Virus record (IMG/VR): IMGVR_UViG_2713897055_000008
Location: 1 to 11,556 of that record
DNA from: a virus
Lineage: Duplodnaviria > Heunggongvirae > Uroviricota > Caudoviricetes
Direction: 5' to 3' (one strand)
Length of the DNA: 11,556 nt
Shown: positions 8,223 to 11,556 of the stretch, piece by piece
How the letters are laid out: each line of letters opens with the position of its first letter
Numbering within the stretch: position 1 is the first letter of the stretch
Notes under the pieces: model-generated
Told to the model about the DNA's origin: nothing
Seen by the model: the letters and a program-made list of their open reading frames with translations, nothing else
Database searches by the model: none
Translations under genes and position numbers: made by a program

Positions 8223-8966
8223 ATGACACAGACTGAATCAGCGATTCTGGCGCATGCCCGGCGGTGTGCGCCAGCGGAGTCGTGCGGCTTCGTGATAAGC
8301 ACCCCGGAGGGGGAGCGGTACCAGCCCTGCGTGAATATCTCCGCAGAGCCGGAGGCGTATTTTCGTATTGCGCCGGAGGACTGGCTGCAGGCACAGATGC
8401 AGGGGGAGATTGTGGCGCTGGTCCACAGTCATCCCGGTGGTCTGCCCTGGCTGAGCGAGGCGGACCGGCGGCTGCAGATAAAGAGTGCCCTGCCCTGGTG
8501 GCTGGTCTGTCGGGGTGAAATTCACCGGTTCCGCTGTGTGCCGCACCTGACCGGACGGCGCTTTGAACACGGTGTGACGGACTGTTACACCCTGTTCCGG
8601 GATGCATACCATCTGGCGGGGATAACGCTGCCGGATTTTGTGCGTGAGGATGACTGGTGGCGCAACGGCCAGAACCTGTACCTGGACAACCTGGCGGACA
8701 ATGGATTTTACCGGGTGTCTCCGTCCTGTGCACAGGCAGGCGATATCCTGCTGTGCTGCTTTGGCGCATCGGTGCCGAATCATGCCGCCATTTACTGTGG
8801 CAACGGTGAACTGCTTCACCATATACCTGAACAACTGAGTAAACGGGAGAGGTATTCTGAAAAATGGCAACGACGAACGCATTCTGTCTGGCGTCACCGC
8901 CACTGGTCCACATCTGCCTTCACGGGGATTTACAACGATTTGGTCGCCGCATCAGTCTGTATGTGA
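8223..8966 (+). CDS. K: Tail tip assembly protein K (JAMM/MPN plus NlpC/P60 domains)
   Basis: ATG 8223 (MTQTESAILAHARR...); JAMM motif HSHPGGLPWLSEAD at 8424-8465; NlpC/P60 catalytic Cys (GVTDCYTLF) at 8583-8585 with downstream His. The frame stays open to TGA 8964-8966, overlapping I by 103 nt. Confidence 0.85.
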   Translation: MTQTESAILAHARRCAPAESCGFVISTPEGERYQPCVNISAEPEAYFRIAPEDWLQAQMQGEIVALVHSHPGGLPWLSEADRRLQIKSALPWWLVCRGEIHRFRCVPHLTGRRFEHGVTDCYTLFRDAYHLAGITLPDFVREDDWWRNGQNLYLDNLADNGFYRVSPSCAQAGDILLCCFGASVPNHAAIYCGNGELLHHIPEQLSKRERYSEKWQRRTHSVWRHRHWSTSAFTGIYNDLVAASVCM

Positions 8967-9508
8967 ACACGGCAGCGGAGGCCATCCGTGCCCTGTCGCA
9001 GCAGGTGCCGGGATTCCGCTGTCAGATGAACGAAGGCTGGTACCAGATACGTATTGCCGGTGAGGATACCGCGCCGGACCAGATATCGCCCCGACTGCAT
9101 GAGCCACTGAACCCGGGGGATGTCATTCATCTGGTTCCCCGGGCAGAAGGTGCCAAAAGTGGCGGAGTGTTTCAGGCCGTGCTTGGCGTTGCGCTGGTTG
9201 CGGCAGCTATCTGGATGCCGGGTATCGGTATTGCAGCCAGCAACATCATGTTTTCCATGGGCTCTGCAATGGCACTGGGTGGTGTGGCCCAGATGCTGGC
9301 CCCGAAGGCAAAGACGCCGGAGTACAAAAGCACGGATAACGGCAGACAGAACACGTATTTTTCGTCACTGGACAACATGATTGCTCAGGGGAATCCGGTG
9401 CCGGTGCCTTACGGTGAAATGCTGGTTGGTTCACGACGGATATCCCAGGACATCAGCACCCGTGATGAGGGCGGTGACGGGAAAGTGGTGGTTATCGGGC
9501 GGGGATGA
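8864..9508 (+). CDS. I: Tail tip assembly protein I
   Basis: ATG 8864 is the first start after in-frame stops; 214 aa; N-terminus (...ICLHGDLQRFGRRI...AEAIRAL...) and C-terminal region (KSGGVFQ...NTYFSSLDNM...VVVIGRG) resemble lambda gpI as recalled. Confidence 0.88.
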   Translation: MATTNAFCLASPPLVHICLHGDLQRFGRRISLYVNTAAEAIRALSQQVPGFRCQMNEGWYQIRIAGEDTAPDQISPRLHEPLNPGDVIHLVPRAEGAKSGGVFQAVLGVALVAAAIWMPGIGIAASNIMFSMGSAMALGGVAQMLAPKAKTPEYKSTDNGRQNTYFSSLDNMIAQGNPVPVPYGEMLVGSRRISQDISTRDEGGDGKVVVIGRG

Positions 9509-9512
9509 AAAT

Positions 9513-9547
9513 AAAAAAAAATCCCGCAGTGCTCTGTAGCTGCGGGA
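9513..9547 (-). terminator. Intrinsic-terminator-like element, minus-strand orientation (unit 1)
   Basis: Stem TCCCGCAG (9522-9529) / CTGCGGGA (9540-9547), 10-nt loop; on the minus strand it is followed by nine T (9513-9521). Confidence 0.55.
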
Positions 9548-9644
9548 AGAGATACGAAGATTAACTTTAAGGAATTTTTCATTATTCTGGCAGATGAACT
9601 GTAACGCAGCGTGATTATGAGCACTACAGTCAGTGTGCGGAAAT

Positions 9645-9671
9645 GTGAATAAACTCAGAATTTTTATTCAC
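9645..9671. repeat. Perfect 9-bp inverted repeat GTGAATAAA-N9-TTTATTCAC (unit 1)
   Basis: Read directly; degenerate in units 2 and 4. Confidence 0.5.
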
Positions 9672-9734
9672 GGGAAGGGAGGGGCCGGATATCGGTGGCA
9701 GAGGACAGAAGGCATCATGCCGGGTTCAGGGGAT

Positions 9735-9767
9735 AAAAAAAATCCCGCAGTACTCCGTGCTGCGGGA
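9735..9767 (-). terminator. Intrinsic-terminator-like element, minus-strand orientation (unit 2)
   Basis: Stem 9743-9750 / 9760-9767 (same 8-bp sequence as unit 1), 9-nt loop; eight T on the minus strand (9735-9742). Confidence 0.55.
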
Positions 9768-9958
9768 AGAGAACGATGTTGACTAACCTGTTGGCGTTTT
9801 ATTTTTATTGACCCGAAGAAACTGTAACCTGCCGGAATGCACTCTGCCACGGAGAATGACGGAAAATGTGAAGAAAATCAGAGTTTTTATTTATCCCGTA
9901 CATTCGTCTCTGGCGACAGAGTGGCGTCAGTAATGTCCGTGATACTGAGGGGGGAATT

Positions 9959-9997
9959 AAAAAATCTCCCGTAATACACCTGGATATTGACGGGAGA
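9959..9997 (-). terminator. Terminator-like hairpin, minus-strand orientation (unit 3, variant stem)
   Basis: Stem TCTCCCGT (9965-9972) / ACGGGAGA (9990-9997) with an inner AATA/TATT extension; six T on the minus strand (9959-9964). Different stem sequence from the other units but same fold. Confidence 0.4.
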
Positions 9998-10099
9998 AAC
10001 GAATAGTCACCTTAAGGAGTAGTTTTGATTATTGCCTGTAATCAGCGGGCGAATTGTAACGTATGGTGATTATGAGTGCCACAGGTAATTTGCAGAAAT

Positions 10100-10126
10100 G
10101 TGAATAAATTCAGAATTTTTATTCAC
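10100..10126. repeat. Perfect 9-bp inverted repeat GTGAATAAA-N9-TTTATTCAC (unit 3)
   Basis: Read directly; identical arms and spacing to the unit-1 copy. Confidence 0.5.
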
Positions 10127-10188
10127 AGGAAGGGGCTGCGGGATATCGGTGGCAGAGGACAGAAAATATCAGGCCGGGTTTAAGGGAT

Positions 10189-10222
10189 AAAAAAATCCCG
10201 CAGAGTCAGCGGAGCTGCGGGA
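10189..10222 (-). terminator. Intrinsic-terminator-like element, minus-strand orientation (unit 4)
   Basis: Stem 10196-10203 / 10215-10222 (TCCCGCAG/CTGCGGGA), 11-nt loop; seven T on the minus strand (10189-10195). Confidence 0.55.
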
Positions 10223-10395
10223 GAGAACGATGAAGATTAACGTTATGGAGTTATTTTTCAGGCATCAAAAAAGTAACGCAGCGTCATTATTGCGGCTACA
10301 GGCAATTTGCAGAAATGTGAAGAATTTCAGAAATTTTATTCCGTCATGACACAGGCACCTCCGGGGTGCCTGTTGTTTTTGGGCATAAACAGATT

Positions 10396-10422
10396 CAGAC
10401 ATCAGACATCAGACATCAGACA
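10396..10422 (+). repeat. Heptanucleotide microsatellite (CAGACAT) x ~3.9 just upstream of the J ribosome-binding site
   Basis: Read directly: cagacat cagacat cagacat cagaca, followed by GGAGAGGGGG and the GTG start at 10438. Confidence 0.8.
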
Positions 10423-10437
10423 GGAGAGGGGGACAGA

Positions 10438-11556
10438 GTGGGTAAAGGGGGCGGCAAGGGGCACACACCGCGTGAGGCGAAGGACAATCTCAAATCCACG
10501 CAGATGATGAGCGTGATTGATGCCATTGGTGAGGGACCGGTGGAAGGCCCGGTGAAGGGACTGCAGAGTATTCTGGTGAACAAAACCCCGCTGACGGACA
10601 CGGACGGTAATCCCGTGATACACGGTGTGACCGCCGTCTGGCGTGCCGGGGAGCAGGAGCAGACACCGCCGGAAGGCTTTGAGTCCTCCGGGGCAGAAAC
10701 CGCACTGGGCGTGGAGGTGTCGAAGGCAAAGCCGGTGACGCGCACCATCACGTCAGCGAACATTGACCGTCTGCGGGTCACCTTCGGGGTGCAGTCACTG
10801 GTGGAGACCACCTCAAAGGGTGACCGTAATCCCTCTTCTGTCCGCCTGCTGATTCAGCTTGAGCGTAACGGTAACTGGGTGACGGAGAAGGATGTCACCA
10901 TTAACGGCAAGACCACCTCGCAGTACCTGACGTCGGTGATTCTGAATAATCTCCCTGAGCGCCCCTTTAACATCCGGATGGTCAGGGAGACGGCGGACAG
11001 CACCACGGACCAGCTGCAGAACAGAACGCTGTGGTCGTCATACACCGAAATCATCGATGTGAAACAGTGCTACCCGAACACGGCCATTGTGGGGCTGCAG
11101 GTGGATGCGGAGCAGTTCGGTGGCCAGCAGCTGACGGTGAACTACCATATCCGTGGTCGCATCATTCAGGTGCCGTCAAACTATGACCCGGAAAAACGCA
11201 CCTACAGCGGTATCTGGGACGGCAGCCTGAAACCGGCATACAGCAATAACCCGGCCTGGTGCCTGTGGGACATGCTGACCCACCCGCGCTACGGGATGGG
11301 AAAACGCCTGGGGGCCGCGGATGTGGACAAGTGGGCACTGTATGCCATCGGGCAGTACTGCGACCAGACGGTCCCGGATGGTTTCGGGGGCACAGAGCCG
11401 CGGATGACCTTTAATGCGTACCTGTCACAGCAGCGTAAGGTGTGGGATGTCCTGGGGGATTTCTGCTCGGCGATGCGCTGTATGCCGGTATGGAACGGTC
11501 AGACGCTGACGTTCGTTCAGGACCGTCCGTCGGATGTGGTGTGGCCGTACACGAAC
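10438..11556 (+). CDS. J: Tail tip / host specificity protein J, N-terminal 373 codons (continues past window end)
   Basis: GTG 10438 preceded by GGAGAGGGGG. Translation (M)GKGGGKGHTPREAKDNLKSTQMMSVIDAIGEGPVEGPV...WCLWDMLTHPRYGMGKRLG... is near-identical to the lambda J N-terminus as recalled. Absent from the ORF track because there is no stop inside the window. Confidence 0.93.
   Translation, partial: MGKGGGKGHTPREAKDNLKSTQMMSVIDAIGEGPVEGPVKGLQSILVNKTPLTDTDGNPVIHGVTAVWRAGEQEQTPPEGFESSGAETALGVEVSKAKPVTRTITSANIDRLRVTFGVQSLVETTSKGDRNPSSVRLLIQLERNGNWVTEKDVTINGKTTSQYLTSVILNNLPERPFNIRMVRETADSTTDQLQNRTLWSSYTEIIDVKQCYPNTAIVGLQVDAEQFGGQQLTVNYHIRGRIIQVPSNYDPEKRTYSGIWDGSLKPAYSNNPAWCLWDMLTHPRYGMGKRLGAADVDKWALYAIGQYCDQTVPDGFGGTEPRMTFNAYLSQQRKVWDVLGDFCSAMRCMPVWNGQTLTFVQDRPSDVVWPYTN

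Follow-up and report, generated by a model that had tools for sequence, protein, structure and literature searches.

Positions 9959-9997 of the window (the whole stretch of 11,556 nucleotides analyzed here) can fold into a hairpin that resembles three neighboring hairpins in form and differs from them in part of its stem, which raises the question of what this element is and whether its pairing is maintained by selection. The sequence comes from the tail module of a lambdoid E. coli prophage and is 99.5% identical to prophages in the chromosomes of many Shiga-toxin-producing E. coli. The annotation of these chromosomes runs through tape measure, M, L, K (C40 peptidase), and tail assembly protein I, followed by a 930-bp unannotated gap and by gpJ, whose start codon in the window is the GTG at 10438 (encoding MGKGGGKGHTPREAKDNLKST).

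The gap contains four tandem units of ~222-232 bp each, with their genes on the minus strand (Table 1). Read on that strand, each unit has a conserved promoter block, a variable stretch of ~45-60 nt, and a hairpin with a U tract behind it, which together make up the layout of a small autonomous gene opposing the late operon. Two minus-strand open reading frames (9409-9624, 71 aa, and 9668-9850, 60 aa) were considered as genes and rejected, as the ATG and the frame differ between units and the frames traverse the putative terminators.

Anatomy of the four units

In the plus-strand letters, unit 3 has A6 at 9959-9964, TCTCCCGT at 9965-9972, a 17-nt spacer at 9973-9989, and ACGGGAGA at 9990-9997, exactly where the sequence-only reading had placed an A/T tract and a perfect stem, here of 8 bp. 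The same reading had units 1, 2, and 4 sharing another stem, and TCCCGCAG/CTGCGGGA is indeed present in each (arms at 9522-9529/9540-9547, 9743-9750/9760-9767, and 10196-10203/10215-10222, respectively), with a plus-strand A tract before the stem (A9, A8, and A7) and 9-11 nt between the arms. Hairpins with the stem CCCGCAG/CUGCGGG are referred to as type A, and those of the unit 3 type as type B.

The minus-strand RNA of unit 3 folds at -15.2 kcal/mol (z = -3.70, none of 200 dinucleotide shuffles being equal or better) into a hairpin of 13 pairs followed by U6. The foot of the stem has 8 bp, five of them G-C, and five upper pairs stand above it. These upper pairs, AAUAU/GUAUU, lie above a one-base bulge within the apparent 17-nt loop, which leaves a real loop of 6 nt. 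Hence, the longer loop attributed to unit 3 holds for the spacer between the arms but not for the folded RNA. Folding the minus-strand RNA of each unit, as had been proposed, gives strong hairpins in all four (-13.9 to -15.2 kcal/mol, z -3.3 to -4.7).

The stem of unit 3 had been described as different in sequence, and this is true of part of it. In a MAFFT alignment of 28 distinct terminators, TCCCG/CGGGA, which makes up five of its eight stem pairs, is in register between types A and B and is shared with the other units of the window. The two outer pairs are new: two letters, GA, were inserted in the 3′ arm and pair with an upstream UC that unit 4 also has. The upper stem alone was truly replaced, CAG/CUG giving way to U(C)AAUAU/GUAUUA.

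In unit 3, a G+C-rich stem stands directly before the U tract on the transcribed strand. A consensus terminator scan of the minus strand (loop of 3-8 nt, uninterrupted stem) listed the hairpin of unit 4 alone. Units 1-3 were missed because of loops of 9-10 nt (units 1 and 2) and of the bulge or the 17-nt loop (unit 3); these misses are limits of the scan and no argument against function. Judging from their sequence, all four units are predicted to have the hairpin and U-tract architecture expected of transcripts of ~80-90 nt. The predicted sRNAs are 75-88 nt long across the four units, with 5′ ends good to ~15 nt.

Table 1. Features at the I-J junction, in window positions; promoter blocks, terminators, and sRNAs are predicted.
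Feature	Position	Strand	Description
Tail assembly protein I gene	8864-9508	+	ORF; annotated "tail assembly protein" in 99.5% identical chromosome; upstream array boundary
Unit 1 terminator	9513-9547	-	type A, UCCCGCAG...CUGCGGGA then U9; -14.3 kcal/mol, z -4.7
sRNA 1	9513-9591	-	~79 nt; 5′ end by alignment to PasB 5′ end, +/-15 nt
Unit 1 promoter block	9598-9668	-	-10-like TACAGT 9603-9598, CATAAT 9619-9614; A/T-rich block 9641-9668
Unit 2 terminator	9735-9767	-	type A then U8; -14.9 kcal/mol, z -3.6
sRNA 2	9735-9814	-	~80 nt, 5′ end predicted; PasB unit match E = 2.2e-12
Unit 2 promoter block	9821-9891	-	
Unit 3 terminator	9959-9997	-	type B, UCUCCCGU(C)AAUAU-CCAGGU-GUAUUACGGGAGA then U6; -15.2 kcal/mol, z -3.7
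sRNA 3	9959-10046	-	~88 nt, type B, 5′ end predicted; PasB unit match 9960-10124, E = 1.1e-8
Unit 3 promoter block	10053-10123	-	TACAAT 10058-10053, CATAAT 10074-10069; conserved block 10096-10123
Unit 4 terminator	10189-10222	-	type A then U7; -13.9 kcal/mol, z -3.3
sRNA 4	10189-10263	-	~75 nt (~90 nt from upstream -10); EcOnc22 ortholog
Unit 4 promoter block	10270-10340	-	
gpJ start (tail tip, host specificity protein)	10438-11556	+	annotated gpJ; downstream array boundary

In 74 distinct copies of the unit, conservation is highest in the promoter block, where an A/T-rich stretch and TTCACATTT are found together with two -10-like hexamers 15 nt apart. The block of unit 3 is 80-83% identical to that of unit 1, and the candidate -35 elements of unit 3 are poor. 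A 10-bp inverted repeat, TGTGAATAAA-N9-TTTATTCACA, is found at 10099-10127 in unit 3, with an imperfect copy at 9644-9672 in unit 1, in the most conserved A/T-rich part of both promoters. This repeat is a candidate, and could be an UP element or the binding site of a regulator. A CRP site was considered for the TGTGA...TCACA palindrome and rejected, as its spacing is 19 bp and CRP needs 6 bp.

Homologous RNAs in EHEC and EPEC

EcOnc22, EcOnc23, and EcOnc24 are homologous Hfq-CRAC peaks on the chromosomal plus strand in the prophages Sp15, Sp14, and Sp11 of EHEC Sakai (Tree et al. 2014; PMC4104026, Table S2), and EcOnc22 gives a Northern band of ~85 nt and is destabilized in an hfq deletion (PMC4104026). 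All three lie between I and J of their prophages, in which both tail genes are read from the minus strand. Table S2 of PMC4104026 uses an older genome version, and a shift of about +135 to +146 bp separates its coordinates from those of NC_002695.2 (loci L003-L007); it was calibrated by the Rfam matches to AgvB and AsxR in NC_002695.2. Once corrected, the EcOnc22 peak spans the predicted sRNA body and reaches over the 5′ half of the terminator; the uncorrected coordinates, which indicate the hairpin beside J, the wrong element for EcOnc22-24, were rejected after this calibration.

The I-J regions of Sp15, Sp14, and Sp11 have one unit each, nearly identical to unit 4 of the window. The Sp15 unit (EcOnc22) and unit 4 are in the same I-J slot and on the same strand, and with 100% identity in the body, 97% in the terminator, and 94% in the promoter they are essentially one gene. 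The predicted length of sRNA 4 (~75 or ~90 nt) equals that of the EcOnc22 Northern band exactly in neither case.

An Hfq-dependent RNA of 83 nt, PasB, is known from EPEC E2348/69, where its minus-strand gene covers 1466343-1466261 (Pearl Mizrahi et al. 2021; PMC8550237, Table S6) and where RIL-seq found 37 interactions for it (PMC8550237). The flanking tail genes are read from the plus strand there, with the end of gene I at 1466255 and the start of gpJ at 1466496, and PasB is antisense to them, 6 nt past the I stop. PasB thus resembles the units of the window in lying between the I stop and gpJ in antisense orientation, and its promoter block, AAUCUUC motif, and CCCGCAG/CUGCGGG terminator with U tract are homologous to theirs; it is, however, a single gene at its locus, in contrast to the four in tandem here. 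The PasB sequence ends in ...CCCCGCAGCUCCGCGAUCACUGCGGGAUUUUUUU, and its mapped 3′ end is the final U of seven (U7) downstream of the CCCGCAG/CUGCGGG hairpin, which has the same stem as units 1, 2, and 4. The published Northern probe for PasB is complementary to this hairpin.

When the 181-nt PasB unit is used alone as query, nhmmer matches all four units on the minus strand and near full length, with E = 3.5e-24 for unit 4, 4e-22 for unit 1 (9509-9669), and higher values for units 2 and 3 (Table 1). Unit 3 is the weakest match and is carried mostly by the promoter block; its body and terminator are 42% and 47% identical to those of PasB. An HMM made from type-A units only, leaving out the window and the near-identical locus L001, matched unit 3 at 2e-21. 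Because of their position, the 3′ end of PasB, and this homology, we read the four units as paralogs of PasB and EcOnc22-24 and their hairpins as intrinsic terminators. Positions 9959-9997 would then, with high probability, serve as Rho-independent terminator for sRNA gene 3 in a tandem of four that belong to the PasB/EcOnc22-24 family, unit 3 being a diverged type-B paralog.

As judged by sequence comparison, EcOnc22-24 of EHEC and PasB of EPEC are one family at one phage locus. The connection between EcOnc22 and PasB is absent from PMC4104026 and from PMC8550237, whose Table S6 gives EHEC homologs for PasA and PasD and none for PasB. A preprint on the Pas RNAs (Zhu, Shabalina and Storz 2026, 10.64898/2026.05.13.724894) used BLAST with a word size of 28, and describes PasB variants that differ by few nucleotides, typically one variant per genome; it uses the word "tandem" three times, for other sRNAs only, and states that the PasA and PasD copies are non-tandem. 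A full-text literature search, with most subscription journals outside its coverage, found no description of a four-gene array or of the type-B form. No targets or function are reported for EcOnc22-24, and the targets given for the family in the literature are RIL-seq lists only.

Binding to Hfq and Hfq-dependent stability are probably properties of the RNAs of the window too, as predicted from EcOnc22 and PasB, the RNAs of the family that have been detected experimentally, both of which are type A. By analogy with Hfq-dependent sRNAs, RNA polymerase would start at the promoter of unit 3, from either of its -10 candidates (Table 1), and transcription would end ~88-103 nt downstream at the U6 tract (9964-9959). 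The hairpin and the 3′ oligo-U would bind the proximal face of Hfq and shield the RNA, and the single-stranded variable body (~75-90 nt) would carry a seed that pairs with target mRNAs of its own. Since the bodies differ between units, the targets probably differ as well. Selection for termination and for RNA stability would keep the stem of unit 3 paired.

AgvB and AsxR (RF02702, RF02703) are likewise Hfq-binding sRNAs of lambdoid prophages with a conserved 3′ terminator module and a variable 5′ region, but they have another sequence and another locus, downstream of the Q-dependent PR′ and near stx and lysis genes. The presence of AgvB at the I-J junction was considered and rejected, as AgvB and AsxR are downstream of PR′ beside STnc100 and Rfam finds neither in the window. 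At its gathering thresholds, Rfam 15 gives zero matches for the window and for the I-J loci of Sakai, and with E up to 10 the window has chance-level matches only. PasA, PasC, and PasD were likewise rejected, their loci being near Q and the lysis genes.

Adjacent duplicated genes for Hfq-dependent sRNAs, with common promoter and terminator modules and diverged sequence between them, are known in OmrA/OmrB of E. coli and PrrF1/PrrF2 of Pseudomonas. These are chromosomal pairs, whereas the units here come in up to four mosaic copies in a phage structural operon, in a number that varies between prophages; both pairs are cited in the Pas preprint (10.64898/2026.05.13.724894). Phage "morons" (Juhala et al. 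2000, cited in PMC4104026) are likewise autonomous units of promoter, gene, and terminator between genes of the late operon. The units of the window differ from them in that the cargo is a noncoding RNA, antisense to the operon, and in multiple copies.

Conservation of pairing and alternative explanations

According to the sequence-only reading, pairing that is preserved in spite of sequence change argues for selection on the structure; homologous arrays should then have covarying base pairs, and random unpaired substitutions in the stems of homologs would speak against it. The promoter-block scan of viral contigs, together with the loci of complete genomes, provides 164 units in 118 loci, with 28 distinct terminators. 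Over the eight pairs common to these terminators, 98.2% of the stem cells are paired, and three of the eight pairs have changed on both sides (GC to AU at 8-28 and at 12-25, CG to UA at 10-27). In 500 column shuffles, a control that ignores relatedness, neither the observed covariation score nor the observed percentage paired is attained, and pairing falls to 27-67% when the 3′ partner is slid by 1-3 columns. Among type-A hairpins (22 distinct segments with 17 different loops), none of the 14 stem columns is variable, against 11 of the 12 loop columns (Fisher p = 1.6e-6). In type B, 12 of 12 pairs are kept in six sequences, where three pairs changed one-sidedly (U-A/U-G or A-U/G-U). Random unpaired substitutions in the stem are found in none of the 164 copies. 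The alignment thus bears out the expectation and supports selection on stem pairing, through independent events that are few and with five of the eight pairs of unit 3 simply common to other units. Such selection would be explained by the stem being an intrinsic terminator and probably an Hfq-binding 3′ end.

Type B has four or five sequence variants, and the hairpin and U tract are intact in all, every stem being fully paired, with wobble changes as the only differences between stems. Besides the form of the window (UCUCCCGU(C)AAUAU...GUAUUACGGGAGA), there is one in which a U-A pair became U-G and the outermost pair is lost, one with the upper stem AGUAUC/GAUAUU, one that is bulge-free with a perfect 14-bp stem, and one with a one-base deletion in the loop. 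The motif CCUUAAGGUGACUAUUCGU is found just before the stem in most copies, and the L022/L169 lineage keeps its AAGGUGACUAUUC core only. Type-B units are third in four-unit arrays, last (beside J) in two- and three-unit arrays, or alone, and 116 of 5426 complete E. coli genomes carry them. Their occurrence alone or next to J in other prophages, and in that many genomes, indicates a lineage that is being maintained, rather than a single copy that decayed. A third type, C (CCCACAG/CUGUGGG), occurs at one locus (L013, ~1149-1330), in a single divergent unit whose body is nearest to EcOnc22 (66%), and differs from type A by a clean compensatory double change from G-C to A-U. By sequence, at least three types of terminator and some eight to ten types of body can be told apart in the family, a diversity that exceeds the reach of a BLAST survey with word size 28.

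It may be asked whether unit 3 is instead a silent, decaying duplicate, whose hairpin is kept by youth or by hitch-hiking with active units. Its poor -35 candidates and the five stem pairs identical to those of other units agree with such a history, as does the fact that type B is known from sequence alone. Yet unit 3 is unlike a recent copy, being ~40-50% identical to its neighbors in body and terminator and 80% identical to unit 1 in the promoter. The intact type-B variants, of which one has the perfect stem and some are the sole unit at their locus, and the conservation of CCUUAAGGUGACUAUUCGU or its core also argue against decay, which we regard as very unlikely.

The hairpins might also act in the plus-strand late mRNA, processing, stabilizing, or attenuating it between I and J, given that stems of G-C and A-U pairs fold on either strand and that the late transcript has to cross the array. 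Type-A hairpins even gain 0.8-4.7 kcal/mol in stability when folded as late mRNA. The wobbles of type B, on the contrary, become A-C mismatches on the plus strand, where type-B hairpins are 1.4-3.4 kcal/mol weaker. As the two types favor opposite strands, folding energy alone cannot assign the strand, and the assignment follows mainly from the one-sidedness of the U tract and from the published transcripts. The U tract comes after the hairpin on the minus strand only, the plus strand having an A tract before it; EcOnc22 and PasB are antisense to I and J, and PasB ends at the U tract; and a conserved promoter block precedes every hairpin in the minus-strand direction. A function in the late mRNA is, in view of this, very improbable. 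Finally, an inverted repeat acting at the DNA level (protein-binding palindrome, recombination site, or cruciform) to build or rearrange the array would fit the invariance of the type-A stem, where the constraint could be on sequence, and the mosaic arrays of one to four units, but is extremely improbable because types B and C alter the stem letters yet keep the pairing, every hairpin comes with a U tract on one side only and with a promoter upstream, and the transcript end of the homologous PasB maps at the hairpin.

Distribution and probable modular history of the array

Most loci, including those of Sakai and E2348/69, have a single unit, and we know of no such unit between I and J of phage lambda. 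The four-unit array is found, at a coverage of at least 80%, in 67 genomes. The multicopy prophages, which have two to four diverged tandem copies, are mainly in cattle- and human-derived STEC, non-O157 where the serotype is recorded. A scan of viral contigs with a 14-base type-B motif gave mostly chance matches and one new unit. The promoter-block scan of one genome per species gave three matches only, all in improbable hosts, and no support for the family outside E. coli phages. Two of these matches are on short contigs, of 546 bp in an assembly labeled Asaia platycodi and of 460 bp in one labeled Parendozoicomonas haliclonae, and the third is on an 8.5-kb contig of a Flavobacteriales MAG (L116-L118 together); L117 is a full-length unit with an nhmmer score of 166. 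They are probably contamination by E. coli phage or mis-binning.

Body and terminator types travel together. Identity among type-B bodies is 62-81% (63-74% when unit 3 is one of the two), against 38-54% with the bodies of types A and C (39-49% for unit 3). Promoter blocks, on the other hand, are shuffled independently: the type-B unit of L048 has an EcOnc22-like promoter (91-92% identical). Within the window there is a super-period of 454-455 bp, with 9596-9804 matching 10051-10258, the spacer 9684-9741 being 88% identical to 10138-10195 and the body of unit 2 75% identical to that of unit 4. This suggests that a block of two units was duplicated and that the body and terminator of unit 3 were then replaced by a type-B cassette. 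As read from these similarities, the history of the array is one of modular recombination among prophages sharing I and J, beyond simple in-place drift of a duplicate.

The spacers between units (9669-9734, 9892-9958, and 10124-10188) resemble the 3′ end of gene I weakly and locally, as in ACGGGAA..GG.TATCGG..GGC.G.GGA. This may be a trace of unit copying, and the alignment scores are low. The view that the spacers are remnants of the 3′ end of gene I is left unclaimed, the local alignments being weak.

The hairpin itself is ordinary, and the tandem array and the link between EcOnc22 and PasB are modest additions. More tentatively, one could view the I-J junction as a recombination hot spot where promoter, body, and terminator modules are shuffled and up to four units are stacked. 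The array might then provide some STEC lysogens with a cassette of different seeds, including a type-B sRNA with its own terminator design and targets, and the RNAs, being perfectly antisense to the I-J leader in the late transcript of the resident phage and of related incoming phages, might also modulate J expression. The alignment of the family is a concrete basis for an Rfam model, and its natural seed variants offer a way of asking what these abundant and functionally uncharacterized prophage sRNAs regulate.

Two further elements are found just upstream of J. A terminator-like hairpin in the direction of the late operon, ACAGGCACCTCCGGGGTGCCTGT then TGTTTTTGGG, is at 10351-10383 (+), between the promoter of the J-proximal sRNA and the J start. 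It forms in 112 of the 112 loci examined, with a few stem variants; there is one double change from C-G to U-A, and the one-sided stem changes favor either strand. In the J leader, just upstream of the ribosome-binding site of J, there is a perfect tandem heptamer, (TCAGACA)x4, at 10395-10422, whose copy number ranges from 0 to 5 across the 112 homologous loci, the commonest being 2.
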